A DNA stretch of 64,000 bases from Ekhidna sp. (lineage in GTDB: Bacteria > Bacteroidota > Bacteroidia > Cytophagales > Cyclobacteriaceae): contig OZ253940.1 of assembly GCA_965267215.1 (NCBI GenBank), forward strand, positions 2,478,097 through 2,542,096. The letters are read 5' to 3'. Each line of letters starts with the position of its first letter. The first letter of the stretch is position 1. The position numbers and the translations under genes are program-made. Shown in pieces: positions 5,112 to 37,750 of the stretch. The notes below the pieces were generated by a model, which searched no databases, was not told where the DNA came from, and worked only from the letters and a program-made list of their open reading frames with translations.

Positions 5112-5178
5112 AAGGAGCTGGAAATTAATAAAAATGCTCCTTTATTGATGGGACATTACATCAGATCATAGACTAACT

Positions 5179-5571: not shown

Positions 5572-5634
5572 AAGCTCGTCACTATCTAAGATAATGCCAA
5601 GTAATTTTCTTTATTAAAAAATTATCCTGATTTC

Positions 5635-6519: not shown

Positions 6520-6671
6520 AATTTCTATTTTATTGATCACTAATGATCACCAAGTTTATTCATTCCGATTCTTTTAGTGTAACCCATTTTTCTACTACAG
6601 CCATTTCAGAATTATCATCGGGTCTTTCACGCTTGAATACTAAACTTACATTTTGAATCTTTTTTATTTGA

Positions 6672-6700
6672 TATCCTGGTTTTAAAGAAGTGTGACAGAA
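6672..6700 (-). promoter_or_regulatory. Putative ECF promoter TTCTGTCACAC-N13-GGATA upstream of the sigma gene
   Basis: Plus strand tatcc 6672-6676 and gtgtgacagaa 6690-6700; the same motif and spacing recur at 8308-8336. Confidence 0.7.
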
Positions 6701-6777
6701 TCACATAAAAAATTCGAAAAGAGGAAGTATTGTAATGTACTCCCTCTTAAATAAGTCTACATTCTACATTTAGTCTT

Positions 6778-7497: not shown

Positions 7498-7531
7498 CGT
7501 AATTGATTTATTTTTAAAAATTGAATTTGAA

Positions 7532-8278
7532 TTAAACCTGAGCCATTCCGCCATCGACAGGAAGCTCTACACCATTGACATAAGAGGCTTCATCTGAAGC
7601 AAGGAACAGTACTGCTTTTGCGATTTCTTCGCTCGTTCCCATTCTTCCTAATGGAACCATTGTTTTCACCTGCTCTTTAAAGCCATTGGCTTGCTCTTCT
7701 GTAAGATCCATTTTACCCCATACTGGTGTTTCTATGGGTCCGGGCGACATGGCATTAACTCGAATTTTTCTTGGAGCTAGTTCCATCGATAAGGTTCTCA
7801 CCAGCGACCGCATAGCTGCTTTTGTTGCAGCATATACACTCAAACCAGGCATCCCCTTTACATTTGACACGCTCGTATTCAGAATAATGCTCGCTTCATC
7901 ATTTAGATGTGGAAGGGCCGCCTGAATTGTGAAATAGGTACCAGCAAAATTCACATCCATCATAGCATCATAGTATTCACGATCAGCCATTTCAAAAGGC
8001 CTTGGCTTAGCGATACCCGCATTGATGAATAGCACATCAATCTTTCCAAACTTTTCTGCTGCTTGAATCAGTGCATTTTGCACTTTCTCTTCCTGACTGA
8101 CATCAGCTACTAAACCCAGAGAGTTTTCTGAAGCACTGGTATTAAAATCGTCTATTGCTTCTTGTCGTCTGCCTATAATTGTCACTTTCGCTCCTTCTTT
8201 TTCAAAAAGTTTCGCGGTTTCTAAGCCCATACCACTATTTCCACCAGTGATAAAGGTTACTTTGTCCTTAAGTCTCAT
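7532..8278 (-). CDS. Short-chain dehydrogenase/reductase (SDR)
   Basis: TGGNSGMG Rossmann motif, NAG, catalytic YAATK. Confidence 0.93.
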   Translation of the reverse strand: MRLKDKVTFITGGNSGMGLETAKLFEKEGAKVTIIGRRQEAIDDFNTSASENSLGLVADVSQEEKVQNALIQAAEKFGKIDVLFINAGIAKPRPFEMADREYYDAMMDVNFAGTYFTIQAALPHLNDEASIILNTSVSNVKGMPGLSVYAATKAAMRSLVRTLSMELAPRKIRVNAMSPGPIETPVWGKMDLTEEQANGFKEQVKTMVPLGRMGTSEEIAKAVLFLASDEASYVNGVELPVDGGMAQV

Positions 8279-8307
8279 TTCTAGTATTTTAAAATTTATA
8301 CTAGTTG

Positions 8308-8336
8308 TATCCGGCTATTGTGCGGGTGTGACAGAA
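8308..8336 (-). promoter_or_regulatory. Putative ECF promoter TTCTGTCACAC-N13-GGATA upstream of the SDR-DUF1330 operon
   Basis: Plus strand tatcc 8308-8312 and gtgtgacagaa 8326-8336; 30 nt upstream of the SDR ATG. Confidence 0.72.
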
Positions 8337-8431
8337 CCTGGGATATTTAATTAACAATTCCAGCACCAAACTTCATTTTAGATGTTGCATGCTTGATCAT
8401 CCACTCCTTTGATGAATCAAATTTCAAATCT

Positions 8432-8439
8432 TAACTTTG
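8432..8439 (+). promoter_or_regulatory. Bacteroidota housekeeping-sigma -7 element TAACTTTG
   Basis: Exact TAnnTTTG match 4 nt upstream of the PPIase ATG. Confidence 0.55.
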
Positions 8440-8443
8440 ACAT

Positions 8444-9250
8444 ATGCGAACTAACCTAATCATTCTTCTTTTCGGAGTACTGGCGGCTTGTTCCACTCCT
8501 AAAAGCAGTGAAGAAACTACTAAACCTATCCAAGTTGAACTTCAAACGACTAAGGGCACAATTATCTTAGAGTTATCTGACAAGACCCCTCAGCACCGAG
8601 ATAACTTCGTAAAGCTTATAGAAGCAGGAGTTTACGACAGTATCCTATTCCATCGAGTGATCAATGATTTTGTGGTACAAGCTGGAGAGCGAGATAGTAC
8701 ATATGTATTTGAGGATGATGAAATCAAAGACGATTATAAAGTTCCTGCTGAGTTTGACTCAACTCTGTTTCACAAAAGAGGGGCTCTGGGTGCAGCAAGA
8801 GATGGAAATCCGGAAAGAGCATCTTCAGCTATTCAGTTTTACATCGTTCAAAGAGGACCAAACGCTGATAGCCTTATTGATGAGGGAGAAACGCGGATCA
8901 ATAATTGGCTGGCAAGTCACTATACATTAAATGCCCCTGAAAATCAAGCGCTAAAGGATTCTATCACAAAAGCGATTGAAGAGGAGAATTGGGAGGAATA
9001 TTCGATGCTCAATGATTCCATTCAATCATTAGCAGAATCATTTGAATTCCAAAAATATGAAATACCGGAAGCCCATCGTGATACTTATCGAACGCTAGGT
9101 GGAACTCCACACCTGGATCAAAACTATACAGTATTCGGAGAGGTCGTCGATGGAATGAATGTAGTCGATTCCATTGCTGCAGTGCAAGTAAATGATCAGA
9201 ATCGTCCCATCAAGGATATACGGATTATCTCAGCACGAATTCTAAAATAA
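8444..9250 (+). CDS. Cyclophilin-type peptidyl-prolyl isomerase, lipoprotein
   Basis: Lipobox LAAC; FHRVINDFVVQAG, FHKRGALGAAR, HLDQNYTVFGEV. Confidence 0.92.
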   Translation: MRTNLIILLFGVLAACSTPKSSEETTKPIQVELQTTKGTIILELSDKTPQHRDNFVKLIEAGVYDSILFHRVINDFVVQAGERDSTYVFEDDEIKDDYKVPAEFDSTLFHKRGALGAARDGNPERASSAIQFYIVQRGPNADSLIDEGETRINNWLASHYTLNAPENQALKDSITKAIEEENWEEYSMLNDSIQSLAESFEFQKYEIPEAHRDTYRTLGGTPHLDQNYTVFGEVVDGMNVVDSIAAVQVNDQNRPIKDIRIISARILK

Positions 9251-9292
9251 CTTTAGTAGACAAATGCATTCTGATCAATAAAATAAATCATT

Positions 9293-9344
9293 TATGTAGT
9301 TGTCTACATATTTTATCTATATTTATGTAGTCAACTACATAAAT
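9293..9344. promoter_or_regulatory. Two palindromic operators, likely bound by the MarR protein
   Basis: TATGTAG-TTGT-CTACATA (9293-9310) and ATTTATGTAGT-CA-ACTACATAAAT (9321-9344, perfect 11-bp arms) abutting the MarR ATG. Confidence 0.8.
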
Positions 9345-9842
9345 ATGCAATACGATTTTGTCAATGAACTGGGGTATTTAGGTTTATCTGTACGCCTTAA
9401 GCGTTTAAGTGAGGCCATGGTCCATAGCGGAAGACAGATGTATAAGTCATTGGGACTCGATATAGAGCCCAATTGGTTTCTCATCTTCAAGCTCCTTAAG
9501 AAATATGATCAATTATCTGTCACCGAGATGGCAGCTAAGCTCCACTTCTCCCACCCTTCTGTCATCACGCTAGTTGGCAAAATGGAAAAGGCTAATTATC
9601 TGGATTCCTCAGTTGATCAGTCTGATTCTCGAAAAAAACATTTTCGCCTTTCCCAAAAGGCTCACGACCAACTTCCTCGGTTTGAAGAAATATGGGAAGC
9701 CGGAATCAAAGGAGTAAGTAACCTATTTTCGGAAGACAGCAACTTCATGGATCAACTGGAATTACTGGAGATCCAATACAGCCAAAAAGACTTTAAAGAA
9801 CGAACATTAAATGAACTAGTGCCTAATGGCACAAATATTTAA
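9345..9842 (+). CDS. MarR-family transcriptional regulator
   Basis: ATG 9345; wHTH LSVTEMAAKLHFSHPSV and wing DSRKKHFRLS. Confidence 0.88.
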   Translation: MQYDFVNELGYLGLSVRLKRLSEAMVHSGRQMYKSLGLDIEPNWFLIFKLLKKYDQLSVTEMAAKLHFSHPSVITLVGKMEKANYLDSSVDQSDSRKKHFRLSQKAHDQLPRFEEIWEAGIKGVSNLFSEDSNFMDQLELLEIQYSQKDFKERTLNELVPNGTNI

Positions 9843-9913
9843 TGTTAATAAGCATCTGATAGTCAGATATTAAATTCATTAGAAAGAATACCTCTGTAAA
9901 TCAAAATTAGAAT

Positions 9914-11353
9914 ATGAATAACTCACTAGATATAGCTTCAAGCGAATTCAAAAAATTACTTGAAAACACTACTGAACTTGTTTTACAACAGTTTGAGAAT
10001 CTTGAGGGTAAAAAAGCCTATCACTATCATTCACAAAAGGAAGTAGAAAGCTGGTTTGATGAAGACCTACCCGAGACCGGAATGGATTTAGATCTACTTC
10101 TCCAGGAAGTAAAAGTAAAGGTGATGGATACGGCCACTAATAACTTGGGGCCTTACATGTATGCTTACGTGATGGCGGGTGGTACCCAGGTTTCCATTAT
10201 TGCAGATCATTTAGCGTCAACTATCAATCAAAACGTAGGGAAATGGCACCTAGCTCCCGCTATCAATGAGATTGAACGACGAGTTATTCAATGGGGTGGG
10301 GAGATTACTGGATTTGATTCCAATGCGGCAGGAGTATTAGTAAGTGGAGGGTCAGCGGCAAATCTGGCAGGTCTGGAAGTAGGTCGAAACATATTCTTTG
10401 AGAGACATCAAATCAGGAAAAAAGGACTTTTTGGAATGAAGCCCTTCACGGTTTACGCTTCTTCGGAGGTTCATGGATGTGTTGATAAGAGTATTGAAGA
10501 GTTAGGGATTGGAACTGACCAACTTCGAAAAATTCGAGTGAATGATGATTTTACCATTGATCTTAATGCTTTAAATGCTCAAATCGAAAAAGATAAAGCT
10601 GATGGGTTCACACCATTCTGTATTGTAGGTAATGCGGGAACAGTAAACACTGGAGCAATTGATGATTTGGATGCTTTAGCTGATTTCGCTGAAAAACATG
10701 AAATGTGGTATCATATAGACGGGGCTTATGGCGGATTGGTTGGCTCTCTTGAATCTTTAAAAGAAAAATATAGAGGGGTAGAAAGAGCTGACTCCCTCGC
10801 AGTTGATTTTCACAAATGGTTATACCAAACATTTGAAGCCGGTTGCCTTTTGGTTAAAGATTGGGATAAACTGAAGCGATCCTATTTTAAGGTGGCGAGT
10901 TACCTGGATGCAAGCCTTGAAGAAAAAGGGAGAGTCAACTTTAACGAGCATTACTTTCAACTTTCCAGAAATGCAAAAGCCTTAAAGATATGGATGAGCA
11001 TAAAAGCCTATGGAATCACTGCCATTAAGGAGATGATTCAAAAAGACATTGATCTTGCTCAGTACCTGTCTGACACCATTGAATCCAGTGAAGACTTTGA
11101 GTTGGTTAGAAATTCAGATCTGGCTATTTCTTGTTTCCGATTTATTGGTAACTGTGAATCCGAAGAAGAAATAGAACAACTGAATCGAAAACTAATCCCA
11201 GCTTTAGAAAAAGACGGACGCGTATTTATTACCGGAACCACTCTGAACAGCAAGTTTGTCATCCGAGCTTGCTTGATTAACCATCGCATGCATAAAGGAA
11301 CCGTTGATTATTTAGTGAATGTAATAAGAGAGGTAGGAAACAGTCTTGCTTGA
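9914..11353 (+). CDS. Group II PLP-dependent decarboxylase (aromatic-amino-acid/DABA decarboxylase family)
   Basis: GTVNTGAIDDL, WYHIDGAYGG, ADSLAVDFHKW (PLP lysine). Confidence 0.9.
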   Translation: MNNSLDIASSEFKKLLENTTELVLQQFENLEGKKAYHYHSQKEVESWFDEDLPETGMDLDLLLQEVKVKVMDTATNNLGPYMYAYVMAGGTQVSIIADHLASTINQNVGKWHLAPAINEIERRVIQWGGEITGFDSNAAGVLVSGGSAANLAGLEVGRNIFFERHQIRKKGLFGMKPFTVYASSEVHGCVDKSIEELGIGTDQLRKIRVNDDFTIDLNALNAQIEKDKADGFTPFCIVGNAGTVNTGAIDDLDALADFAEKHEMWYHIDGAYGGLVGSLESLKEKYRGVERADSLAVDFHKWLYQTFEAGCLLVKDWDKLKRSYFKVASYLDASLEEKGRVNFNEHYFQLSRNAKALKIWMSIKAYGITAIKEMIQKDIDLAQYLSDTIESSEDFELVRNSDLAISCFRFIGNCESEEEIEQLNRKLIPALEKDGRVFITGTTLNSKFVIRACLINHRMHKGTVDYLVNVIREVGNSLA

Positions 11354-19271: not shown

Positions 19272-19811
19272 TTATTCAACCACTTCAATCACTAAGTTGT
19301 GATTGGTGTAAATGCAGATATCTGCAGCGATCGTAAGTCCTTCACGTACCATCTCTTCTGCTGAAAGATTCGAAGCGTGTTTTTTAAGTGCCAAAGCAGC
19401 AGATCTTGCATACATGCTTCCTGAACCAATAGCTGCTATCTCCTCATCCGGCTCAATTACATCCCCGGTACCAGAAACAACAAGCACTTCATTTTTATCA
19501 GCCACGATCATCATGGCTTCAAGTTTTCTTAAGTACCGATCAGTCCTCCAGTCTTTTGCAAGCTCAACGGCAGCTCGTTTTAGATTGCCAGAATAGTTGC
19601 TCAGCTTTTCATCGAAACGATCCAAAAGTGTAAATGCATCGGCAGTTGATCCGGCAAAGCCAGTTACAATCTTGCCATCGCCAAGTTTGCGAATCTTTTT
19701 CACATTGGATTTTGCAACCGTGTTACCAAGTGTTGCTTGCCCATCTGCTCCAATGGCCACTTTACCATTATGTCTTATAGCAAGGACGGTTGTTGATTTG
19801 ATTTTTTCCAT
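19272..19811 (-). CDS. hslV: ATP-dependent protease peptidase subunit HslV
   Basis: N-terminal TTVLAIR (Thr nucleophile), [37 protein letters not shown]. Confidence 0.96.
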
Positions 19812-19831
19812 TTCGTTTATCAAAAAAGACA

Positions 19832-19918: not shown

Positions 19919-21565
19919 CTAGATCAAAATTCTTACAGGGTCTTCTAATAGCTCTTTGAATGTTTTTAGAAAGGCAGAACCAACTGCACCATCAACCGCT
20001 CTATGATCACAAGAAAGAGTTACCTTCATCACATTTCCAGGCTTCATCTCTCGATTCTTCACAATAACAGTTTCTTTTATTCCTCCTACTGCCATGATAC
20101 ATGCATCAGGTGGATTGATAATTGCCGTAAATTCTTCTATACCGAACATCCCCAGGTTAGAAATGGTGAATGTATTTCCTGAGAATTCTTCAGGTTGTAG
20201 TTTTTTATCTTTTGCTTTTTGTGCCAGCTCCCTTACCTCGGCGGATATATGAGACAGGGATTTATTGTCTGCAAATCGAACAACCGGAACAATCAGGCCG
20301 TCTGGGATCGCTACAGCTACTCCAACATGAATATGTTGATGCTTCATCATATGATCTCCCATCCAGCTTACATTCACATCAGGATGCTGACGAAGTGCCG
20401 CAGCAGCAGCCTTCACCACCATGTCATTGAATGAAATTTTGACCGGAGCTACCTCATTAATGGATTTTCTAGCTTCGATGGCCTTATCCATATTGATCTC
20501 CATCGTCAGATAAAAGTGAGGTGCGGAGAATTTGCTATCGCTCAGGCGTTTAGCAATTACTTTACGCATCTGAGAAAGCTCTACTTTTTCAGAACCTTCT
20601 TCACCAACTACCTTTGGAATATTGATGGCTGGTTTATCGGATGTATCTCCTGATGCCGCTTGTGATTGCTGCGGCTGTGCAGATGGAGTAAAATCTTCAA
20701 CATCTTTCTTTACGATCCTTCCATCCGTTCCGGAACCATTGACCTGAGACAGGTCTATCCCTCTTTCAGAAGCAATTTTTTTAGCTAATGGGGATGCTTT
20801 TATCCTGCCATTGTTTGAAGCGTTAGAAGCACTAGGTTGAGTAGTAGCCGAAGGTTTAGCAGATGAAGTACTTTTTGGTGCTTCAGATTTTTCTTCTTTA
20901 ACCCCTTCTTTGGACTCATCTCCAACTTGCTCTTCGGCTTTTAGCAAGGCCTCATAGTCAGCATCTTCTTCTCCAATTATAGCTATCACTCCGTCTACCG
21001 GAACTCCACTTCCAGCCTCAACAGCCGTGTACAGAAGCGTTCCATCCTCATAAGCCTCTAACTCCATGGTGGCTTTATCTGTCTCCACCTCCGCTAGTAT
21101 ATCCCCAGACTCTACTTTATCTCCCTTTTTCTTTATCCAAGATGCTATAACACCTTCTTCCATCGTATCGCTCATTTTAGGCATACGAATGATAGATGCT
21201 TTGATGTTGCTTGTGTCGATCTTTTTTTCCGAGCTTGCTGGAGCTTTCTCCTCACTTGGTGCCTCATCTTCGCTTCCATTGGCTTGACCATCATTTGCTT
21301 CTTCCAATAGATGCTTATAATCTTCTCCTTTTTCTCCAATCACAGCCAGAATACCATCCACAGGTACGGACTCTTTTTCTTTGACTCCAATATGCAACAA
21401 GACACCATCCTGATAGGATTCTAATTCCATGGTTGCTTTATCGGTTTCCACTTCTGCAAGTACATCACCGGAACTCACTTCATCACCCTCTTTTTTCAAC
21501 CATGATGCAATCACACCTTCTTCCATGGTATCGCTCATTTTGGGCATTCTTATTACTTCAGCCAT
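19919..21565 (-). CDS. pdhC: Pyruvate dehydrogenase E2, dihydrolipoamide acetyltransferase with two lipoyl domains
   Basis: Two IRMPKMSDTMEEG...ETDKATME lipoyl domains; E3-binding ASPLAKK...GRIVKKDV; catalytic DHRAVDG. Confidence 0.96.
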   Translation of the reverse strand: MAEVIRMPKMSDTMEEGVIASWLKKEGDEVSSGDVLAEVETDKATMELESYQDGVLLHIGVKEKESVPVDGILAVIGEKGEDYKHLLEEANDGQANGSEDEAPSEEKAPASSEKKIDTSNIKASIIRMPKMSDTMEEGVIASWIKKKGDKVESGDILAEVETDKATMELEAYEDGTLLYTAVEAGSGVPVDGVIAIIGEEDADYEALLKAEEQVGDESKEGVKEEKSEAPKSTSSAKPSATTQPSASNASNNGRIKASPLAKKIASERGIDLSQVNGSGTDGRIVKKDVEDFTPSAQPQQSQAASGDTSDKPAINIPKVVGEEGSEKVELSQMRKVIAKRLSDSKFSAPHFYLTMEINMDKAIEARKSINEVAPVKISFNDMVVKAAAAALRQHPDVNVSWMGDHMMKHQHIHVGVAVAIPDGLIVPVVRFADNKSLSHISAEVRELAQKAKDKKLQPEEFSGNTFTISNLGMFGIEEFTAIINPPDACIMAVGGIKETVIVKNREMKPGNVMKVTLSCDHRAVDGAVGSAFLKTFKELLEDPVRILI

Positions 21566-21678
21566 TTAGATCGTCTTTAATTCTTTAGTTCAAAATTAAC
21601 CCATCAATCAAAATAAAAATTTGGAATCGAAACAAAATGATCATTGAGTAAGCGCTTTCTCGTATTAAATTGCCAAAA

Positions 21679-22362
21679 ATGTTAGACAGGTACACCATAA
21701 CATTAAATTCAGATGAGTTAGCACTGGTTTTGGGTGCGGAGGTTTCATCCAGGTACGAGCCTCAATACAATGCCGCTCCAACAAAAGTCTTACCCCTCAT
21801 CACCAGCCAAAATCCCGGTCAGGTTTCTTTTTTTAATTGGGGTTTAATGGCTATGTGGTCTAATAACAAAACAATGAGTCCTAAATTCTTCAACCTGCCT
21901 TTGGATTCGGTGATGTCAAAAAATACTTACAAGAAGAAAATTATTACCAATAGATGCATCATCCCAATGGATGGTTTTTATTTATGGAAACAAGTAGCAA
22001 AAAAACAGCAGGTACCTCACTATTTTTTCTACTCGGATAAAAAGGTATTTTCGGTAGCTGGCATATGGGAAGAAGGTGATGACAACACACACTCTTTCAT
22101 TATGATCACCAGGCCTGCAAATCCTCAAATAAGTTCTTTTCAAGGAGATATGCCTGCAATTATGGATGCCTCTTCCTCAAGAAAATGGTTAGAATCAGAA
22201 GATTTGGAAGAACTCAACGCCTTGCTTAGCACTGAAGTCAAAGACGAGTTCCTATCTCACACAGTAGCACCAAGAATTAGGGACATAGAAGGTAATGATG
22301 TTTCATTCATAAAACCGACTCCACCAGCGGATCAACATGGAAATTATACACTCTTTACCTAA
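21679..22362 (+). CDS. SRAP/YedK/HMCES-family protein lacking the catalytic Cys, Glu and His
   Basis: YNAAPT, WGL, RCIIPMDGFYLW, VAGIWE and MP motifs align to SRAP; ATG 21679 gives MLDRY. Confidence 0.85.
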   Translation: MLDRYTITLNSDELALVLGAEVSSRYEPQYNAAPTKVLPLITSQNPGQVSFFNWGLMAMWSNNKTMSPKFFNLPLDSVMSKNTYKKKIITNRCIIPMDGFYLWKQVAKKQQVPHYFFYSDKKVFSVAGIWEEGDDNTHSFIMITRPANPQISSFQGDMPAIMDASSSRKWLESEDLEELNALLSTEVKDEFLSHTVAPRIRDIEGNDVSFIKPTPPADQHGNYTLFT

Positions 22363-23453
22363 TGAAATTTAGATACCTTATTTGTTGGTTAATTGTATCT
22401 GCCTGCTATGTGGGAGAAGAAGTACCCCCTGATCAGATTGTCTGGGAATACGGAAGGCCTAAAGATTTTTCCGTTTCCGAAGACTCGCTTCTCTTCATAA
22501 ATTCAAAACTTCTTACTAATCAGCTGACTCGAGAGGAATTTGGCTTTCTTACCGGGTTAATTATTATCAAGAATAATCACTTGATTTTCGAAAACTATTA
22601 TCTGGGTGAAACTAGGGAAGTACGTCGAAATATAGGACAAGGCAGCCTCATTTTTACGCTTGCCGCCATTGGCGTAGCTGAAGACAAAAATCTTTTATCC
22701 ATCAATGATTTGATTTCTGAACATCTACCAGAATATTCAGAAATTTTTCAGGCCGATTCGGATAAAGAAGTTATTACAATAGAACACTTACTAACTCATA
22801 AAAGCGGATTTTCATGGAATGAAAGTATTTTTCCTATCATCAGCCCACAGAGTGATCTCAATATCATGAGGTCTAATAATGACTGGATACAATACATTCT
22901 GGAGAAGCCTCTGGAAGCCCCTCCAGGCTTGAGATTTAATCTCAATACAGCCACCGGCTTGATTTTGGCAAAAATCATCGAAAACGCCTCAGGCATGGAT
23001 TATTTAACCTTTCTTGATGAAAACATACTCAGTCCGCTAACCATTGAGTCCTTAACTGTTGAAACTGATCCCGAAGGAAATTTTAATGGAGGATTTGGAA
23101 TTAGTACTTCATTAATCGATTGGACGAAACTTGGCTATTTAATCTTAAATGAGGGCATATGGAATGGTAGAAAAATCATTGATCCCAATTTCATCCAAGA
23201 CGCTACATCTTTACAGACACAGGTAACAGGCAATTATAGTTTAGGGTACGTTTGGTGGCTTTTTGGAGAAAATTTTGAAACCAGTTTTGGAATAGAATCC
23301 GATGAAATATTCTATGTCCCTGGTGAATTGGGTCAGCATTTATACATTATTCCATCAGAAAATGTAATTGTTTCTATCTTCGCGGAAAACTATTTCTTTG
23401 GGTTTAATAATCCATCTTTAAAGTTATTTGGAGAAATAACATACGCTTTTTAG
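22362..23453 (+). CDS. Beta-lactamase/class C serine-hydrolase-fold lipoprotein with degenerate active site
   Basis: Lipobox VSAC; ITIEHLLTHKSG, KLGYLILNEGIWNGRKII, YGY-like YVWW; SxxK absent. Confidence 0.82.
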   Translation: MKFRYLICWLIVSACYVGEEVPPDQIVWEYGRPKDFSVSEDSLLFINSKLLTNQLTREEFGFLTGLIIIKNNHLIFENYYLGETREVRRNIGQGSLIFTLAAIGVAEDKNLLSINDLISEHLPEYSEIFQADSDKEVITIEHLLTHKSGFSWNESIFPIISPQSDLNIMRSNNDWIQYILEKPLEAPPGLRFNLNTATGLILAKIIENASGMDYLTFLDENILSPLTIESLTVETDPEGNFNGGFGISTSLIDWTKLGYLILNEGIWNGRKIIDPNFIQDATSLQTQVTGNYSLGYVWWLFGENFETSFGIESDEIFYVPGELGQHLYIIPSENVIVSIFAENYFFGFNNPSLKLFGEITYAF

Positions 23454-23462
23454 ATCAATAGT

Positions 23463-24032
23463 ATGAATTCTGATAATGACCTTTTGCTTTTCCAGCAGGT
23501 AAAAAGTGGTGATTTCTCCGCCTATGAGGTCATATTTAAGCGTTATTACAAAGAACTATATCGCTTTGCATTTACATATGTGAGAGATGCTACCATAGCA
23601 GAAGAAATGGCTCAGGAAGTATTTCTGTACATATGGGAAAAACGGATCAATATTGAAATTCAAACAACCCTAAAGACCTATCTTTATTCGGCTGTCAAAA
23701 ACAAGTGTTTGAACTACATTAAATTGGAACTGCCAAAACAACAATCCATGGCCGATGTGAGTGAGGTACTTCTTAGTGTCAGTGCACCAAACAAAGATGA
23801 AGGAGAGAATGACAGACTAAAGAAATACATACAATCAGCGGTGGATGCCCTTCCAAAAAAATGCCGGAGAATTTTCATCCTGAGTAGGAATTCAGGTATG
23901 ACCTACGAAGAGATAGCTGAAGAGCTAGATTTATCTAAAAAAACCGTAGAAAATCAAATGGGTATTGCGCTGAAAAAACTTAGAGAATCGCTTGAGAATG
24001 TTTATAAACACTATAAGGAACACATGATGTAA
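23463..24032 (+). CDS. ECF sigma-70 factor (Bacteroides expansion type)
   Basis: AEEMAQEVFLYIWEK; LPKKCRRIFILSR; TYEEIAEELDLSKKTVENQM. Confidence 0.93.
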   Translation: MNSDNDLLLFQQVKSGDFSAYEVIFKRYYKELYRFAFTYVRDATIAEEMAQEVFLYIWEKRINIEIQTTLKTYLYSAVKNKCLNYIKLELPKQQSMADVSEVLLSVSAPNKDEGENDRLKKYIQSAVDALPKKCRRIFILSRNSGMTYEEIAEELDLSKKTVENQMGIALKKLRESLENVYKHYKEHMM

Positions 24033-24086
24033 AAAAGTTGAAAAAAACTTAGGGGTCTGTCCCCAAAGTTTTGACTGACAAATGAG

Positions 24087-24971
24087 ATGGCAAACGACCT
24101 GAGAATATACAACCACCTGAACTACAAAGATGATTCTCACGAAGAGAGTGATGGATTTGTAGACTTCCTATTTCAAAACAGCGAAATAGATATACCTGAG
24201 ATAGACGAGGAGAGAGCGTGGGAAGCGTTAAATCAAAAGATTTATCAACCGAAAAAATCTATTTCATGGATGAAAGTAGCAGCAACAGTTGCTATTCTAG
24301 CCGTTCTTTCTGTAACGGTTTATCTGTACAACCCATCTCCATCAACTGTTAGTATCGCATCAACTGACCAAATAGTGAATGTCACGTTCCCTGATGGATC
24401 TACTGGGATTCTAAATAAAAATTCTTCTTTTTCTTATCCTGAAAAATTTGGTAAAGAAAGAAATGTTTCTTTCACAGGAGAAGCGTATTTCGACATCCAA
24501 AAAAGTGCTAAGCCTTTCATCATAGACGTCAATGGTGTTGATGTGAAAGTTTTAGGAACCGCATTTAATCTTGTGACCACAAAAAATCAAGTAAAATTGT
24601 ATGTTGACAGAGGGCTAGTTGCTTTTGAAAAAGATGGAGAGCAAACACAGGTCCCTGCTGGTAAAGAAGCGATTTTTAATCGTGCAAATGCTTCTGTAAA
24701 CATAAAAAATACTCCTGATGAAAATATCATGAGTTGGAGAAGTGGAATTTTCAATTTTGATGACACCCCACTAAAAAAGGCACTTCCTGAGTTAGCTGAT
24801 TACTATGAAGTAGAGTTTGAACTCTCAAATGGTCAGCTTAATGAGTGTAAAATAACAGCTACTTTCAATAAGAAGACTTTGAAAGAAGTATTGGAAACCA
24901 TAAGTACTGCACTTAATGTAAAAGCTGTTATCAAAAACGATAAGGTAAAAATTTCAGGGCAAGGTTGCTAA
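24087..24971 (+). CDS. FecR-family anti-sigma factor
   Basis: One TM helix; PDGS..LNKNSS, GEAYFDI, KVLGTAFN, W..G.F.F.DTPL. Confidence 0.92.
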   Translation: MANDLRIYNHLNYKDDSHEESDGFVDFLFQNSEIDIPEIDEERAWEALNQKIYQPKKSISWMKVAATVAILAVLSVTVYLYNPSPSTVSIASTDQIVNVTFPDGSTGILNKNSSFSYPEKFGKERNVSFTGEAYFDIQKSAKPFIIDVNGVDVKVLGTAFNLVTTKNQVKLYVDRGLVAFEKDGEQTQVPAGKEAIFNRANASVNIKNTPDENIMSWRSGIFNFDDTPLKKALPELADYYEVEFELSNGQLNECKITATFNKKTLKEVLETISTALNVKAVIKNDKVKISGQGC

Positions 24972-24998
24972 GTCCGGCCTGGGCTATTCATTACTTTT

Positions 24999-27626
24999 GT
25001 GGGCGTGTATTTCGTCCGCATCATCTACTTACGTAAGTTTTTGACACTCGTCCTTTTAGGTGGGGTCATTGTGTGCGCGAGTGCCCAGGAAAATCCTCTG
25101 GACAAAAAACTTGAAAACACGGATGAATCAACACTGTTTCAGCTATTAGACTCTATAAGAGCAAAGGGCGTAAAGCTGGCTTATAGTTCCAATAAACTAA
25201 CCAATCAACAAATTGAAATTTATGGAACACCTACCATAAGAGCGTTTTTTGATTATTTAGAACAACATCGCATTGCTGATGTAGTCTATGAGGGTGATCA
25301 AATTATTGTCCTCCAGCATACCCCAAAAAACTACACAGTACATGGGGTGCTAAGAGATGTGGAAACTGGTGAACACATCATTGGTGCAGCCATTGAAGTT
25401 CAAGGATTACAATTGGGAACTACCACAAACGGATATGGTTATTACTCACTCACTATTCGAGAAGGAGACTATAATCTACGATTTTCACACATTGGTTACC
25501 AGACGCATGAAACTGAAATATCTCTATTTAAGGATTATTATTTAGAAGTTTCCTTATCACCACAAATAACAGAGCTCGAGGTAGTAGAAGTTGTTTCCAT
25601 TTCAGATGATGTGAATCTAACTGAAACGATTCCTTCTATTAATCGAATCTCGATTTCGGGTGCGGATGGACAAATACCCTACTTTCTAGGTGAAGTAGAT
25701 GTCATTCAAAATGCGCTACTCAAGCCTGGAATAAGAGCAATTGGTGAGGACGCCAGCGGCATTCATGTACGTGGAGGTGGAGTCGATCAAAATCTCACCC
25801 TGTTGGATGAAGCTATTATTTACAATCCAAACCACTTTTACGGACTAATATCAGTATTCAACCCAGAGGCTGTCAATGATGTTCGAATAATGAAAGGCTA
25901 CATTCCACCATCATATGGTGGCAGATCTTCATCTGTTATCGAAGTACGACAAAAGGAAGGGAATATAAATAGAACAAGCGTTTCTGGTGGAATTGGGGCA
26001 CTTTCAGCCCGAGTACTTGTTGAAGGTCCCATTCATGAGGGTAAAAGCTCTTTTTTAGTCTCCGGTAGACAAAGTTTGCTAAACTTATCCATTGATGATT
26101 TTGCAAGTACATCTGTGCAGAGAAATAGAATAAGGTTCCAGGATCTAAATCTAAAACTGAACTTTAAATACAGCCAGGCAAGTACGTACTACTTATCAGG
26201 ATATTTAGGAAATGATCGGAATATCGCAGGCCTTACCTCTACCAGGAATTGGGGAAATAGAATGCTTAACTTCAGGTGGAATTATCTTTTCACACCCCGC
26301 TTATTTTCAAATATTTCTGCTTTTTATTCCGAATACAATTATCGAATTGAAAATACTGAAGAACCAGGGTCCTTTGTAGGTCGATCCAAGATCTCAGATG
26401 CCGGTGTGAAAGTGAACTTAACATCTGATTTATCTCCATACAATGAGCTTTCTTACGGATTTAGTTTCATTTATCACCGTCTCATTCCGGGAGTTCGTGA
26501 ACCCCTTGATCAAAGTACAACTACCAATAGAGTCAAACTGGAAGATGAACGTGGAGTTGAATCAGCACTTTTTATCGGGCAAAAAACGTCAATAGGTAAT
26601 CTGTCATTTGACTATGGATTGAGGGTTAGTAGTCTGCAAACATTTGGTCCTGGTTCAGTATTTGAATATAAGGATGATATTCCTTTAGCTGATTCTACGA
26701 TTACTGATACGTTGAGATTTGATAATCTTGATCTGATCTATAGAGACGTGAATTTTGAGCCAAGGGCTTCTATTAATTGGCGGATGAATAAAACCACGTC
26801 TCTCAAAGCGGCATTCAGTAGAACTGCTCAATACCTACATCTGATTTCTAACACCATTTCACCAGCACCAACAGATATCTGGAAATTGAGTGGACGATAC
26901 ATCCCTCCTACTACCACGAATCAATACACTATCGGTCTTTACAAAAACCTAAAATCTAACACGTGGGAGCTATCTTCAGAGTTATACTTTAAAGACATAC
27001 AAAACAACATTCAATATAAGAATGGTGCTGATCTCATTTTTAACGAGAATGTTGAAACAGAGCTCCTATTGAGTCAGGCTAGAGCCTATGGTTTAGAATT
27101 GTACGCAAGAAAAAGGACAGGAAGATTGCAAGGATGGATCAGCTATACACTTTCCAGGGCAGAAAGCCGAATACCAGAAAATGGAGATCAGCGATTTGTT
27201 TTAGAAAATCATGATAAGACTCATGATTTTTCCACATCGTGGAGTATGAAAATCTCTCCAAGGCTAAATGCATCAGCAAATTTTGTTTACAACACAGGAA
27301 TCCCGGTCACACTGCCTACGGATAAATATATTTTTGAGGACAATCTGGTTCCACACTTTCAGTTTAGGAACAACTCTCGATTGCCAGATTATCATAGATT
27401 AGATTTATCCGTACGATGGGAAGGTAGAAACTACAAGAAAAAAGGGAGTAAAAAGAGAAAAAACAGAGACTACTGGATTTTGACAATCTATAATGTCTAT
27501 GCGAGACAGAATGCTTATTCCTATTTTTATAGAGAGTCACCAATAGATCCAGGCACTGCCCAAGTTGTTAAGTATTCCATTTTTGGCACGATAATCCCGG
27601 CAATCACTTACAATTTCAAGTTCTGA
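24999..27626 (+). CDS. TonB-dependent receptor with N-terminal STN-like and carboxypeptidase-regulatory-like domains
   Basis: GTTTNGYGYYSL, VRGGGVDQNLTLLD, YGGRSSSV, LPDYHRLDLS, C-terminal YNFKF; start codon uncertain (GTG). Confidence 0.92.
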   Translation: MGVYFVRIIYLRKFLTLVLLGGVIVCASAQENPLDKKLENTDESTLFQLLDSIRAKGVKLAYSSNKLTNQQIEIYGTPTIRAFFDYLEQHRIADVVYEGDQIIVLQHTPKNYTVHGVLRDVETGEHIIGAAIEVQGLQLGTTTNGYGYYSLTIREGDYNLRFSHIGYQTHETEISLFKDYYLEVSLSPQITELEVVEVVSISDDVNLTETIPSINRISISGADGQIPYFLGEVDVIQNALLKPGIRAIGEDASGIHVRGGGVDQNLTLLDEAIIYNPNHFYGLISVFNPEAVNDVRIMKGYIPPSYGGRSSSVIEVRQKEGNINRTSVSGGIGALSARVLVEGPIHEGKSSFLVSGRQSLLNLSIDDFASTSVQRNRIRFQDLNLKLNFKYSQASTYYLSGYLGNDRNIAGLTSTRNWGNRMLNFRWNYLFTPRLFSNISAFYSEYNYRIENTEEPGSFVGRSKISDAGVKVNLTSDLSPYNELSYGFSFIYHRLIPGVREPLDQSTTTNRVKLEDERGVESALFIGQKTSIGNLSFDYGLRVSSLQTFGPGSVFEYKDDIPLADSTITDTLRFDNLDLIYRDVNFEPRASINWRMNKTTSLKAAFSRTAQYLHLISNTISPAPTDIWKLSGRYIPPTTTNQYTIGLYKNLKSNTWELSSELYFKDIQNNIQYKNGADLIFNENVETELLLSQARAYGLELYARKRTGRLQGWISYTLSRAESRIPENGDQRFVLENHDKTHDFSTSWSMKISPRLNASANFVYNTGIPVTLPTDKYIFEDNLVPHFQFRNNSRLPDYHRLDLSVRWEGRNYKKKGSKKRKNRDYWILTIYNVYARQNAYSYFYRESPIDPGTAQVVKYSIFGTIIPAITYNFKF

Positions 27627-28459
27627 TGAAGAGACTTTTATACATACTGCTTCCTGTTTTACTAGCTTGTGAAAAAGTTGTAGAAGTAGATTTACCTCCA
27701 GCACAAAATCTTGTTATTGTAGAAGGATGGCTCTCTGACGAAAATGGAAATCAACCGATTCGGATTACCAAGTCCAATGCTTTTTCTGACAAGAATCCTG
27801 TCCAACCAATTACCAATGCACAAGTCATTGTTCAGGCACGAACCGGGGAGATTTTCTCATATAGCTACAACTCAGATGGGTATTATCATGCAGACAACCC
27901 TTTCAGCGGGCAAATAGATGTGGAATATCGATTGAGGATAGTCATTGATGATAGCGTCGAAATCAGATCCGACTGGGATAGAATGCAAGAGAAAGTCTCA
28001 ATAAACACCTTGGAAGTGGACTCATTTCAAGAAAATGACCCAAATGATTCTGATAGGCAGATCACTGTGTACTTTCCGAAAATAACAACTCAAGATCCTG
28101 GGGATGCTGAAAATTATTATCGATGGCAGTTTATTAAGAATAATATCATATTCAGTGAACCAGAATCAATTACCATTCAAAATGATCGATTATTTAATGG
28201 CAATCTTATCCCTAACAATTTCAGAAATTTCGACTATGCTTCTGGTGACGAAATGACTGTTAGACTCATTTCAATCTCCCAAAGTTCACATAATTATTTA
28301 TCACTTCTTAAATCACAAATCACAACTTTGGGAACATCATCGGGGACTACCCCGGCCATCGTAAACGGCAATCTCTTTTACGTTGACAATGTAAACCAAT
28401 TGGTGTTGGGATATTTTGGAACTACCGCTATCAGTGAAAGTATGGCAAATGTTCCATGA
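27626..28459 (+). CDS. DUF4249-family lipoprotein
   Basis: Lipobox LLACEKVVEVDL; NYYRW; PAIVNGN...LGYFG; one-base overlap with the TonB receptor stop. Confidence 0.88.
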   Translation: MKRLLYILLPVLLACEKVVEVDLPPAQNLVIVEGWLSDENGNQPIRITKSNAFSDKNPVQPITNAQVIVQARTGEIFSYSYNSDGYYHADNPFSGQIDVEYRLRIVIDDSVEIRSDWDRMQEKVSINTLEVDSFQENDPNDSDRQITVYFPKITTQDPGDAENYYRWQFIKNNIIFSEPESITIQNDRLFNGNLIPNNFRNFDYASGDEMTVRLISISQSSHNYLSLLKSQITTLGTSSGTTPAIVNGNLFYVDNVNQLVLGYFGTTAISESMANVP

Positions 28460-34060: not shown

Positions 34061-35130
34061 TAAATTTCGATAGCATCTAATGCACCAAGCAAAACACTAT
34101 CGTTCTCATTTTCAACGTCTTCAATTGTATTTTTAATCTCCAGATCAACCGGTGTTCCTGTGCCTTCATAGTTTTTCATGTCTGTCGAATAATATCGTTG
34201 ATTGCTCAATGTGACTTTCCATCCATTTGGAAGCCTTTTAGCATACAAATCAGAGTATGAACCATTAGATCGTTCGCCTATGATAGTTACCTGAGGTAAT
34301 TGGTCCATCATAAGCGCAAGAACGTCCGCAGCACTGACCGTCTTATCATTGGTTAGTAGCACGACAGGGCTTAAGAATGGTTCACCATCACATGGCTCGA
34401 CAGTTATATCCTTCAATTTACCAAAAGAACCATTTTTCCGAGTTTGCTTCTTAAAGCCAACCATTTCATCTTCAATTAGTCGCGATACAATCCTTTTTGA
34501 GAATGCATCATCACCACCTATATTGAATCGAACATCGATAATTAAAGCATTTATCTCTGAGAAGTATTCAAAAATCTGATCTAATTGACTATCAAGTGAT
34601 ACTCCTACCATTTTTGTCGGGGTACTGAACGATCGAAAAAATCTCAGGTATCCTATATTTTCAGATCGTGAGTAAGAAAAAAGCTTCTCTCCTCTGAAAG
34701 TCGGACCAAGTTCTCTGATACTATCAAACCCGCTTCTAATAAGTGTTTGCTCTGTCATCTTACTAAAAAGGGGTCTTCGATCCTTCCCGGGGAGAGATGA
34801 AAGCTCTTGCATGATCCTTGACGGACGAGATGCTGACATGCGTTTATTTATCTCATCTGCTTTCAAAGTTGTATGAGCATCATTCAACGGCTTAATCATC
34901 TCCGCAAGAATATCAAACAATTCTTCATCCGATGTATTAGCTGTTATTCGATTACGAAAAACTTGTTTTGCATCCCAGTCTATTCCTTTCTCCTCAAATG
35001 AGGCATACTGTTCATTGAAAAGCTCCCAAAATGCATCAAATGTTTTAAGTGCCTCCGATTGTGCTTTTAGACTTCCAGAAGCCAATAAAACCACACCTAT
35101 CAAAACGACATGTATCAACCATTTACTCAT
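34057..35130 (-). CDS. S41-family peptidase (tricorn-like)
   Basis: Signal peptide; LNDAH; LIIDVRFNIGG; TVSAAD catalytic Ser; IIGERSNG. Confidence 0.9.
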   Translation of the reverse strand: MSKWLIHVVLIGVVLLASGSLKAQSEALKTFDAFWELFNEQYASFEEKGIDWDAKQVFRNRITANTSDEELFDILAEMIKPLNDAHTTLKADEINKRMSASRPSRIMQELSSLPGKDRRPLFSKMTEQTLIRSGFDSIRELGPTFRGEKLFSYSRSENIGYLRFFRSFSTPTKMVGVSLDSQLDQIFEYFSEINALIIDVRFNIGGDDAFSKRIVSRLIEDEMVGFKKQTRKNGSFGKLKDITVEPCDGEPFLSPVVLLTNDKTVSAADVLALMMDQLPQVTIIGERSNGSYSDLYAKRLPNGWKVTLSNQRYYSTDMKNYEGTGTPVDLEIKNTIEDVENENDSVLLGALDAIEIY

Positions 35131-37750
35131 ACTTCAAGGTATTTGCTGGATTCATAGCTGCCACTTTAAGTACACGAGCACTTACTGTGATAAATGAGCA
35201 GGTTACAACAACGAACAATGAAATAAGAATCACTAACCAGGGGAATCCAATTCGGTATGCATAGTTATCCAGCCAGCTATTCATACTGAAAAACACGATC
35301 GGCACACCAATAAATGTCGCAATCCCTATCAGAAATAAGAATTCTTTATAGAAAAGACTGACAATGTGCGTTTCAGAAGCTCCCAATACTTTTCTTACAC
35401 CTACTTCTTTCGTCCGTTGAGATGCAATGAATGAAATCAAGCCAAACAAGCCAAGTATCGCTACCAATAGTGCAAAGCCGGAAAAAACACTGAAAACTGT
35501 TCCAAACTTTCGATCTTCTTTGTAAAGTCGATCAAAGCGCTCATTAATAAAAGAATACTCTAACGTAGAAGTGGGGAACATCTCAGCCCATGTATTCTCT
35601 ATTAGTTCCAAAGACTGATCAATATTTTGTGGTGAAAGCTTCACCAGTGACCTATGCAATACCGGTTGATAAAAATAGCATGTTGGTTCGGCATATTTTT
35701 TTAAAGTCGTTCGATTCACGTTTTGAATCACTCCAACGATGTGATATTTATCATTCTCAGGATCTCGACCAAATTGGATCTTTTCATTCAATACATTAGC
35801 GTCGGAAAGATTAAACCGATCAAGAAAAGCTTGGTTAACAATCACGGCAGCTGAATCTGAAGCCATATCTTTATTAAAACCTCTTCCTTCTATTAGTTGA
35901 ATATTCAACAATGTGAAGTAATTCTCATCCACGGCATGAATGTAAGTGGTTGCATCCAGCCTTTCAGTCAAGCCCACAATTTTGACTCCTCCACTTGTAG
36001 ATGCAATTTCATCGCTCTCCCCGCCCGGTACTGATGTAGTGGTTGCAGCATCAACAACGCTTGCATCTCGTTTAAGGGATTCTAAGAAGGTCTTTACCCG
36101 TTCATTCATTTGATCTTGCTCTCCATTTTGGGGAGTTGGGTTACTGAATGATACGACTTGAGCGATATCCATACCCATATCCATTCTCCGCATAAAATTT
36201 ACCTGTCGGATCACGATCAGCGTGCTCGCAATCAAAGCGATGGAGGTAGCAAACTGCACTACAACAAGTCCTTTCCTTAGACTTACACCACCTTTCGAGT
36301 TTCGGAATTTTCCTTTGAGAACAGCTATGATCTTAAAGTTTGACAAAAAAATGGCTGGATAGAATCCTGAAATAAATGCGCCTAAAAGTGCGAATCCTCC
36401 CAACATACCCAGGAAATAAGCGTTTTTCCATACTTCGTTTAAAATTTGCATTTCTACCAGGTTATTGAAGCTCGGTGCAACAAGGAGTGTAATACCAAAC
36501 GCTATTACCGCACCCAGTATATTGATGATAAGTGCTTCAACCAAAAACTGAATTCTAAGCTGAGACTTACCTGCTCCTATCACTTTCCGCAGACCAACTT
36601 CTTTCGCCCTATCGACTGCTTTAGCAGTTGATAAGTTAATGTAATTCACCCAGGCAATAATGAGTATGAATATCGAAATGATCTCAAGAAAGTTAACTGA
36701 CTTTTTACTACCTGTAACTTCAGGCTCAAAAGTCATATCCGAGTTAAGATGGATCTCTTCTATAGGCTGTAGGTTGAAAAATAACGTACTCCCCTCCGAC
36801 ATATATTTTTCCTTGATTGGAACCAATTTCTTCTCGAGTTCTTCAATATCTGTTCCCTCATCAATTCGAACATAGGTATAATAGTTGAATGCCCTCCAGC
36901 CTTCATTATCAAGACGCTCTTGTACTGTAGCAATGGATATGAGAATATTGAATTTAAAATGTGTGTTCAACGGAACATCTTCAATAACCCCTGTCACTTT
37001 AAACTCTCTGTCAAAACCGGAATACAGATGCAGAGATTTCCCAATGGCGTCTTCACTGCCGAAATAAAATTGAGCTTTTGACTTTGTCAAAACGATGGAA
37101 TTAGGTCCTTTGAGCATGGATTTTTTATCACCAGAAATCACCTTATGTCCAAAAAAATCAATGAAATGCTCGTCAGCCATCTTCACAGATTCTTCGTTGA
37201 TCAATGACTCACCTTTTTTGATAGTAGCTCTTCCAATATTGTAAGCCAGAGCATACGCACTTATCTCAGGCACTTCCTCAGTCAAAACCTTACCTGAAGG
37301 ATTGAACGACATGGCATCTCGAGTACCTAATTGACCGTCTACAATCTGGTCGGATGTGACACGAAAGATAGTTTCAGAATCCTTATGAAAGGAATCGTAG
37401 CTTCTTTCAAACTTGATGTACTGATTGATCAGCAAAAAAGCAGCTAAACCAACAGCTACCCCAGCGATATTAATCGCGGTATACACCTTGTGTTTGGCAA
37501 GGTTTCTAAAACTGATTTTGAAGTAATTCTTAAACATATCTATGTCCTTTATTATTGAGTTTTCGAAAATTGGTCGCAGAAGTGACGGTCTAAAAAGCAT
37601 CATCACATCCATGAGGTATTTGAATTGAGCAAATCGATGGCTAAGTTCAAGGTGGTCTGAATAAAGCTCCTCCAGGTCACCTTTTATATCCGGGTAATAG
37701 TTAGGATGACAGTACCATTTGAACAATCGATCTGCTACTCTTTTGATCAT
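35123..37750 (-). CDS. MacB/FtsX-like ABC permease with N-terminal permease prefix domain (copy 2)
   Basis: IKGDLEELY prefix; NYINLSTAKA..RAKEVGLRKVIGA; RTKEVGVRKVLGA; ANTLKYE. Confidence 0.92.
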   Translation of the reverse strand: MIKRVADRLFKWYCHPNYYPDIKGDLEELYSDHLELSHRFAQFKYLMDVMMLFRPSLLRPIFENSIIKDIDMFKNYFKISFRNLAKHKVYTAINIAGVAVGLAAFLLINQYIKFERSYDSFHKDSETIFRVTSDQIVDGQLGTRDAMSFNPSGKVLTEEVPEISAYALAYNIGRATIKKGESLINEESVKMADEHFIDFFGHKVISGDKKSMLKGPNSIVLTKSKAQFYFGSEDAIGKSLHLYSGFDREFKVTGVIEDVPLNTHFKFNILISIATVQERLDNEGWRAFNYYTYVRIDEGTDIEELEKKLVPIKEKYMSEGSTLFFNLQPIEEIHLNSDMTFEPEVTGSKKSVNFLEIISIFILIIAWVNYINLSTAKAVDRAKEVGLRKVIGAGKSQLRIQFLVEALIINILGAVIAFGITLLVAPSFNNLVEMQILNEVWKNAYFLGMLGGFALLGAFISGFYPAIFLSNFKIIAVLKGKFRNSKGGVSLRKGLVVVQFATSIALIASTLIVIRQVNFMRRMDMGMDIAQVVSFSNPTPQNGEQDQMNERVKTFLESLKRDASVVDAATTTSVPGGESDEIASTSGGVKIVGLTERLDATTYIHAVDENYFTLLNIQLIEGRGFNKDMASDSAAVIVNQAFLDRFNLSDANVLNEKIQFGRDPENDKYHIVGVIQNVNRTTLKKYAEPTCYFYQPVLHRSLVKLSPQNIDQSLELIENTWAEMFPTSTLEYSFINERFDRLYKEDRKFGTVFSVFSGFALLVAILGLFGLISFIASQRTKEVGVRKVLGASETHIVSLFYKEFLFLIGIATFIGVPIVFFSMNSWLDNYAYRIGFPWLVILISLFVVVTCSFITVSARVLKVAAMNPANTLKYE

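Follow-up and report, generated by a model that had tools for sequence, protein, structure and literature searches.

The SRAP proteins YedK and HMCES are understood almost wholly through the cross-linking of Cys2 to abasic (AP) sites. The product is a thiazolidine that the N-terminal amine and the thiol of Cys2 form with the AP-site aldehyde, while a Glu and a His help ring opening and reversal (PMC10505908), and in the C2A mutant of YedK cross-linking falls to background (PMC6821365). Binding of single-stranded DNA (ssDNA) is lost in each of the YedK mutants W67A, W68A, R77A, T149A and R162A; binding is strengthened ~18-fold in E105A and slightly in H160A (PMC6821365). Cys2 is 'absolutely conserved' and 'always the second amino acid' according to the founding SRAP paper, and an SOS-type neighborhood is the classical context of the family (PMC3765255). 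HMCES is recruited to PCNA via C-terminal PCNA-interacting protein (PIP) motifs, and has a Cys2-independent function in alternative end joining and class switch recombination that needs the cleft arginines R98 and R212 (PMC9067407). Here we describe a SRAP gene in a 64 000-nucleotide stretch of Ekhidna sp. DNA (contig OZ253940.1; the whole stretch is called the window), whose product lacks Cys2 along with most of the residues on which this chemistry depends.

The product, here called the window protein, is a full-length pseudo-enzyme under strong purifying selection rather than the product of a decaying gene: it is a homolog of an active family, it lacks the catalytic residues, and it is under purifying selection. 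We give a probability of about 0.5 to its working without covalent chemistry while bound to a hub, probably the beta clamp. What is new is best described as a recurrently pseudo-enzymized, tail-defined SRAP subfamily of Cytophagales, the SRAP fold itself being known; our literature search found no description of Cys-less or pseudo-enzyme SRAPs.

21679–22362, plus strand: coding sequence of the SRAP-fold pseudo-enzyme, 227 aa; start ATG at 21679, stop codon at 22360–22362.

Fold and homologs

By fold and homology the window protein is a member of the SRAP superfamily. A profile search scored it at 143.9 bits against Pfam SRAP PF02586 (cut-off 27.1) over residues 1–201, and its sequence matches in the PDB were BT_1218 (2f20), HMCES and YedK. 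The AlphaFold2 model, for which 87 homologs were the input, has a predicted local distance difference test score (pLDDT) of 89.8 and a predicted template modeling score (pTM) of 0.87. Foldseek comparison of the model with the PDB returned SRAP structures only (YedK, BT_1218 and HMCES; TM 0.76–0.79, E down to 9e-17), the remaining matches being noise. YedK (PDB 6kbz, 6nua and 2icu; TM 0.76–0.78) shares with the window protein the single-domain SRAP fold, a similar length and the core motifs NxxP, WG, RC, GFxxWK, MP and WL, but identity is only ~18% and YedK has no C-terminal tail. The start is well placed, in that the ATG (of M-x-D-R-Y) is conserved and conserved upstream DNA reaches it.

Two DNA runs made on the source sample gave contigs in which the locus shows zero differences, and sequencing error is therefore excluded for this gene. 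The window sequence was not found in RNA runs with the same species label; the runs holding it are DNA assemblies.

A database search yielded 177 homologs. Among the 120 matches listed (42–79% identity) nearly all are full length, and the N-terminus reads M-[LYVI]-D-R-Y, with Cys2 in none; 117 N-termini could be aligned, the other three proteins being truncated there. Loss of Cys2 on this scale far exceeds chance or private mutation, and these homologs and the wider searches below bear out a Cys-less clade in Cytophagales, which a preliminary description of the sequence had proposed to look for. Scanning one genome per species, we found relatives encoded in at least 535 genomes, among them Ekhidna, Cyclobacteriaceae, Marinoscillum, Fulvivirga, Chryseolinea, Ohtaekwangia, Imperialibacter, Algoriphagus and others.

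Purifying selection was estimated by the Nei-Gojobori method. The least saturated pairs gave pN 0.045 versus pS 0.62, for an omega of ~0.03–0.05, a value that is approximate because dS is near saturation; comparisons that involve the window sequence itself have saturated dS and a pN of 0.13–0.22. The preliminary description had argued for a full-length pseudo-enzyme over decay, and these omega values agree. A non-functional relic, a pseudogene or an annotation artifact, which the loss of every residue needed for the sole known SRAP activity might suggest, is effectively refuted by this selection analysis: the reading frame is full length in hundreds of species, the predicted fold is confident, the tail is invariant, and the sequence is confirmed in the source-sample DNA assemblies.

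Residues lost and retained

Alignment to YedK (E. coli MG1655 record) gives the replacements C2 to L2, G3 to D3, W68 to S61, R77 to P74, E79 to D76, E105 to L102, H160 to Q155 and R162 to D157. Most of them fall in four segments.

21682–21687, plus strand: codons of Leu2 and Asp3, in place of the Cys2-Gly3 nucleophile; position 2 is L, Y, V or I in 117/117 aligned homologs, and Asp3 is present in 117/117.
21889–21906, plus strand: F-N-L-P-L-D, residues 71–76, in place of I-N-A-R-x-E; Asn72 (YedK N75) is kept, and Pro74 stands for the ssDNA anchor Arg77.
21973–21987, plus strand: G-F-Y-L-W, residues 99–103; Leu102 stands for the catalytic Glu105, and Trp103 (YedK W106) is kept.
22138–22155, plus strand: F-Q-G-D-M-P, residues 154–159, in place of I-H-D-R-M-P; Gln155 stands for His160, and Asp157 for the ssDNA anchor Arg162 (charge reversal).

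The preliminary description had read MLDRY, FNLPLD, GFYLW, FQGDMP and a PADQHGNYTLF tail, and the alignment finds every one where it had been placed. Its summary, that the entire catalytic apparatus was lost, went too far: the equivalents of C2, E105 and H160 are gone, but those of N75 (N72), T149 (T144), Arg4 and W106 (W103) are kept. Its list of losses stands as given, but left out G3, W68 and R162, and the loss of R77 and R162 had not been recognized as the loss of the ssDNA phosphate anchors. The equivalents of Pro40 and Trp67 (W60) are likewise kept, and among the listed homologs N72 is found in 120/120 and T144 in 110/120. Several of the replacements are themselves conserved in the Ekhidna-Marinoscillum branch (Q155 in 105/120, D157 in 106/120, P74 in 97/120).

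YedK has Cys2, Glu105, His160, R77 and R162 and cross-links AP sites, whereas the window protein lacks all five; the HMCES equivalents of Glu105 and His160 are Glu127 and His210, where the window protein has Leu102 and Gln155. It is thus predicted to be unable to form the N-terminal-Cys thiazolidine cross-link, or an AP-site adduct by the SRAP mechanism, and judged by Cys2, the Glu, the His and the Arg anchors it would fall outside the YedK/HMCES enzyme class. The ssDNA contact set is also altered (P74, D157 and S61), with only W60 kept of the Trp67/Trp68 pair; W68, R77 and R162, three out of five positions at which an alanine mutant of YedK no longer binds ssDNA, are gone. Methionine aminopeptidase does not remove Met1 when residue 2 is bulky; Leu2 should also prevent Met1 removal here. 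Databases label the homologs 'SOS response-associated peptidase' or 'abasic site processing protein'. For the degraded members this label is wrong, because they cannot have AP-site cross-linking activity, and the annotation implies an activity beyond them.

C-terminal tail and beta-thumb

The tail peptide of the window protein is PPADQHGNYTLFT. No other stretch of the protein is as conserved as the pattern D-Q-x-G-N-[YL]-[TS]-L-F.

22330–22359, plus strand: tail D-Q-H-G-N-Y-T-L-F-T, residues 218–227; residues 222–227 are disordered in the model; invariant in the subfamily; candidate hub (beta-clamp-type) docking peptide.
21988–22005, plus strand: beta-thumb K-Q-V-A-K-K, residues 104–109; Lys108 and Lys109 are newly fixed in the tail-bearing subfamily.

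The pLDDT of residues 222–227 is below 50 in the AlphaFold2 model, and the tail thus behaves like a short linear motif that becomes ordered only when a partner is bound. The suggestion of the preliminary description that it is an interaction motif gains from both its modeled disorder and its conservation.

We searched 1.84 billion cluster representatives exhaustively and made counts from the best 150 matches. The tail is present in 66 of the 76 matches that lack the Glu and the His. Among the 66 matches with Cys2, Glu and His (C/E/H) intact, 28 have an xLF-type C-terminus, of which 20 fit QxxLF.

Site-wise conservation was compared between the tail-bearing set and a canonical set, each sampled at no more than 50% identity. 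Fold-core motifs are common to both. The tail-bearing set is without constraint at C2, G3, W67, R77, E79, E105, H160 and R162, and only K108, K109 and the tail are newly fixed in it, with the tail Q, G, L and F each at 100%. K108 is found in 92% and K109 in 89% of the subfamily, while canonical SRAPs have 48% Lys in the first column and 86% gap in the second.

Intact members and recurrent loss

The window protein belongs to a Cytophagales-specific SRAP subfamily, defined by the disordered, invariant D-Q-x-G-N-x-T-L-F and, in most genera, by an operon with yheT. Proteins from 80 genomic loci were aligned and scored for nine key residues (YedK C2, G3, R4, N75, R77, E105, T149, H160, R162). All nine, with the same tail, are present in seven proteins (L047, L051, L057, L058 from Algoriphagus kandeliae, L064, L079 and L080); eight are present in L070 and L073 (both R77K) and in L076 (only Cys2 to Pro), and six to seven in L043, L069 and L071. 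The Chryseolinea-Ohtaekwangia group has four to five, with R77 and R162 mostly kept, and the Ekhidna-Marinoscillum group three to four. The window protein has three, and its Ekhidna lineage represents the most degraded state of the subfamily.

Four of the fully intact proteins (L058, L047, L051, L057) are orthologous to the window protein, with the same tail, the same length and 37–40% identity, but with 9/9 key residues versus 3/9; the intact Algoriphagus members occupy the same slot downstream of yheT. This bears on two points of the preliminary description. It had taken intact close relatives as a sign of recent decay or error: none was found at 42% identity or above, but the more distant orthologs (37–40%, e.g. 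Algoriphagus) are intact. It had also called the tail distinctive of the dead protein, a claim that falls, since the same tail and genomic slot occur in orthologs with all nine residues. The tail therefore predates inactivation and is no sign of repurposing.

With catalytic and tail columns removed from the alignment, a neighbor-joining (NJ) tree interleaves intact with degraded members. Among 100 bootstrap replicates a single-loss topology occurred in 2, at least two losses in 98 and at least three in 93, which speaks for recurrent loss and not for one clade-founding event. The intact state is taken as ancestral because the nine-residue constellation cannot plausibly re-evolve in concert. It is thus well supported that the ancestral subfamily state was a normal AP-site cross-linking SRAP whose key residues were later lost more than once. 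All trees are distance-based, and NJ with a distant outgroup is crude, leaving the exact number of losses uncertain.

The tail-bearing set clusters with a Jaccard index of 0.925, and at 0.9 or above in 33/40 replicates; the cluster is free of C/E/H-intact representatives from the exhaustive search in 31/40. As an exact clade it was recovered in 0/40 replicates, a criterion that is too strict, compared with 33/40 by the relaxed measure. In the NJ tree used for that exact-clade test, which is distinct from the one above, the sister group of the tail-bearing set consists of canonical SRAPs ending in Q-x-S-L-F, and the earliest-branching degraded members have plain xSLF ends.

Some members show intermediate states. 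L076 (an Algoriphagus metagenome-assembled genome, MAG) and L069 (a Cyclobacteriaceae contig) start M-P-G-R-Y; in L076 the change of Cys2 to Pro stands alone, with the Glu, His and Arg anchors intact, and in L069 R77 is also Pro. Both look like very recent first inactivation steps and could date the order of losses. Seven others (L020, L022, L023, L025, L031, L035 and L060) keep Cys2 (M-C-D-R-Y) and have lost G3, R77, E105, H160 and R162; Cys2 is therefore not always the first residue lost.

Canonical SRAPs with clamp-type ends

The bacterial clamp-binding consensus is QL(S/D)LF, with QxxLF as a looser form (PMC9690074; PMC12926913). Q-G-S-L-F or Q-T-S-L-F forms the very C-terminus of four canonical SRAPs (P0295, P0241, P0298 and P0316), of which P0241 is from a Cytophagales MAG. 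P0295 (MCGR start, QGSLF end) is 62% identical to P0241 and lies on a metagenome contig of a presumed Cytophagales relative. Among the matches listed in a database search seeded with P0241, of the canonical Cytophagales SRAPs the one closest to the window protein (the best 120, mostly without an organism name), none was attributed to Ekhidna, Algoriphagus or Cyclobacteriaceae, and the 64-kb window holds no second canonical SRAP.

On its European Nucleotide Archive (ENA) metagenome contig (L082, positions 5001–10696), P0295 is accompanied by a DnaE2-type Pol III alpha (975 aa), a Y-family polymerase (387 aa) and a LexA-like gene with helix-turn-helix and S24 domains. The Y-family polymerase contains an internal Q-I-S-L-F-D. 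By gene content the locus is a compact SOS mutagenesis cassette.

Gene neighborhood

Outside the Ekhidna group, 55 of 62 loci have a same-strand gene of ~318 aa directly upstream of the SRAP gene, most with a 4–8 nt overlap or a ~30 nt gap, in at least four different flanking arrangements. It encodes a YheT-family alpha/beta hydrolase, a family for which our search gave more than 7800 matches (the best 120 all above 52% identity). The pair looks like an operon, for intact (Algoriphagus) and degraded members alike. No yheT was found at the locus in the window and its close relatives, nor elsewhere within the 64-kb window; in the Ekhidna group the SRAP gene is divergent from that for the pyruvate dehydrogenase (PDH) E2 component. 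The window has two further features adjoining the SRAP gene.

22362–23453, plus strand: PF00144 beta-lactamase-family serine hydrolase gene; its start overlaps the SRAP stop by 1 nt (TAATG).
21566–21678, no strand assigned: intergenic region common to the divergent PDH E2 gene; blocks TCAAAATTAACCCATC, AAAATAAAAATTTGG, ATTGAG and TAAATTGCC, conserved across the Ekhidna group.

The PF00144 gene is probably co-transcribed with the SRAP gene; it occupies this position in the window and in 14 of 19 related Ekhidna-group loci, hence in only part of that group. Its product has an N-terminal hydrophobic segment and a Cys, and is likely a lipoprotein or secreted. The intergenic blocks probably hold one or more promoters, possibly Bacteroidota-type elements with a very short leader; the TAAATTGCC block stops ~5 nt before the ATG. 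A sigma-70 promoter scan of the region stayed at background level, with a model that is not appropriate for Bacteroidota.

Across the window and the 80 loci the neighbors include PDH E2, HslV, YheT, FabH and extracytoplasmic function (ECF) sigma genes, and an SOS-type neighborhood (LexA, translesion polymerases, ImuB-C) was not encountered. The PDH E2 (dihydrolipoamide acetyltransferase) gene at 19919–21565 (minus strand) encodes two near-identical lipoyl domains. Source-sample assemblies break at 21510–21550, near its start, where a separate 41-nt contig bridges the gap; the lipoyl-domain repeat may cause this break. Adjoining PDH E2 is an HslV-type proteasome-subunit gene (19272–19823, minus strand), an arrangement that 37 related loci share; a neighboring hslU was not seen in the examined part of the window. 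Downstream, 23463–28459 encodes an ECF sigma factor, a FecR-type anti-sigma factor, a CarboxypepD_reg-domain outer-membrane protein (875 aa) and a DUF4249 protein, a cluster for trans-envelope signaling and TonB-type uptake whose downstream position is conserved in the Ekhidna group. Farther away, at 35123–40411 (minus strand), are two neighboring paralogous genes for MacB-like FtsX permeases of ~880 aa (MacB_PCD and FtsX, in a duplicated architecture).

Possible functions

As a clamp-docked factor, the window protein would work without covalent chemistry, and selection would maintain its SRAP fold, basic beta-thumb and tail. The tail would be a beta-clamp-type docking peptide, elaborated from the Q-x-S-L-F ends seen in canonical Cytophagales SRAPs and echoed in the Y-family polymerase; this is suggested by its same position, its [YL]-[TS]-L-F end and the xSLF ends of the earliest-branching degraded members. 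Docking would be analogous to the PIP-mediated recruitment of HMCES to PCNA, and would tether the protein to the clamp, or to whichever hub recruits the active orthologs. At replication or repair intermediates it might then serve as a non-covalent binder or an occupancy factor instead of a cross-linker, in one of two modes: as a weak or alternative nucleic-acid binder that uses the retained contacts and the basic beta-thumb, or purely as an occupancy or adaptor factor.

Several points weigh against this proposal. The tail ends in N-Y-T-L-F-T with an invariant Q three residues upstream, which is no exact match to the clamp consensus; with Asn for the consensus Gln and an invariant upstream Q-x-G, a different tail partner is therefore possible. 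A search of the window and of ~1 Mb of related loci brought up no other tail-carrying protein. There are no replication or repair genes near the SRAP gene in the window, where the neighborhood is of the housekeeping kind, whereas the canonical SRAP of L082 has repair-gene neighbors. The window protein also lacks the cleft arginines that the Cys2-independent function of HMCES requires, and R77A or R162A alone abolishes ssDNA binding by YedK, while here both anchors are gone. Finally, D3, Q155 and D157 are well conserved in the Ekhidna-Marinoscillum branch, which could mean a new ligand site.

Among the alternatives, a non-covalent ssDNA or lesion shield overlaps with the clamp-docked reading, but would have DNA binding as its core activity, the protein binding and protecting ssDNA without cross-linking it. 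We regard this as a possibility with perhaps half the weight of docking. Seven YedK DNA-contact residues are kept (R4, P34, W60, N72, S77, W103 and T144 in window numbering), K81, K108 and K109 are gained or fixed, YedK itself binds ssDNA ~18-fold more tightly as E105A and slightly more so as H160A (PMC6821365), and HMCES in class switch recombination needs DNA binding but not C2 (PMC9067407). Yet W68, R77 and R162 are replaced, each of which as an alanine mutant leaves YedK without ssDNA binding, and Asp3 and Asp157 bring negative charge to the phosphate site, so that a shield suits the Chryseolinea-type members, with R77 and R162 kept, better than the window protein. Rather less probable is a function away from DNA, for instance in partnership with the YheT-type hydrolase or in its regulation, in which case the tail would dock to that enzyme or to a joint complex. 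The upstream yheT in 55/62 loci across at least four flanking arrangements and the lack of nearby repair genes would fit. The intact members, however, retain the AP-site chemistry in full and so point to DNA as the ancestral site of action; the tail is unchanged in the Ekhidna group, which has no yheT at the locus or in the 64-kb window; and no YheT-SRAP link is known. A new chemistry or ligand pocket, with Asp3, Asn72, Gln155 and Asp157 as a binding or catalytic site (e.g. for a cationic ligand), is improbable. The replacements are specific and conserved in this branch (D3 117/117, Q155 105/120, D157 106/120, P74 97/120), unlike random drift, and therefore leave some room for a re-tooled pocket, but these positions vary widely once the whole dead clade is considered, no residue stands out as a nucleophile, and the space of the former pocket is probably taken up by the hydrophobic residues 2 and 102.

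A broader and more tentative proposal, to which we lend less credence than to clamp docking of the window protein, is that the SRAP fold has a second, cross-link-independent function exerted via a C-terminal hub-docking peptide (most likely to the beta clamp), and that this is the primary selected function in the subfamily. The Cys2/Glu/His chemistry would therefore be repeatedly discardable while the tail stays invariant. If so, the dead proteins would amount to naturally occurring separation-of-function alleles, such as regulators of clamp occupancy or non-covalent binders of fork structures, and would parallel the Cys2-independent role of HMCES.

Comparison with known systems

The subfamily, orthologous in at least 535 species genomes, covers the whole range from intact to entirely stripped members and is under strong purifying selection. 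This natural separation-of-function series, Algoriphagus (intact) versus Ekhidna (dead), makes other functions of the SRAP fold directly testable.

The canonical SRAPs of Cytophagales and other Bacteroidota (P0241, P0295; BT_1218, PDB 2f20) share with the window protein the SRAP fold and have an xSLF peptide at the same C-terminal position as its tail. Unlike it, the QxSLF proteins are catalytically intact and have a short canonical clamp-type motif, and the cassette context of P0295 (DnaE2, Y-family polymerase, LexA) was never seen for the window protein's subfamily. PolY-associated SRAP-like proteins have RecA-NT and N-terminal-arm motifs (PMC12926913), which were also considered; being N-terminal they are a different feature, not applicable to the window protein.

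HMCES has a SRAP domain followed by disordered C-terminal clamp-recruitment motifs, an arrangement that the window protein would share if its tail docks to the clamp. HMCES differs in retaining the whole catalytic set, and its R98 and R212, mapped via YedK R77 and R162, are Pro and Asp in the window protein, whose tail motif is moreover of bacterial type and not a PIP box. Since the Cys2-independent role of HMCES needs the cleft arginines, the analogy fits Chryseolinea-type members better than the window protein. For clamp-type C-terminal recruitment of bacterial SRAPs we found no description in the searchable literature; the C-terminal peptides compared here suggest that bacterial SRAPs are commonly recruited in this way, as a counterpart of the link between HMCES and PCNA.

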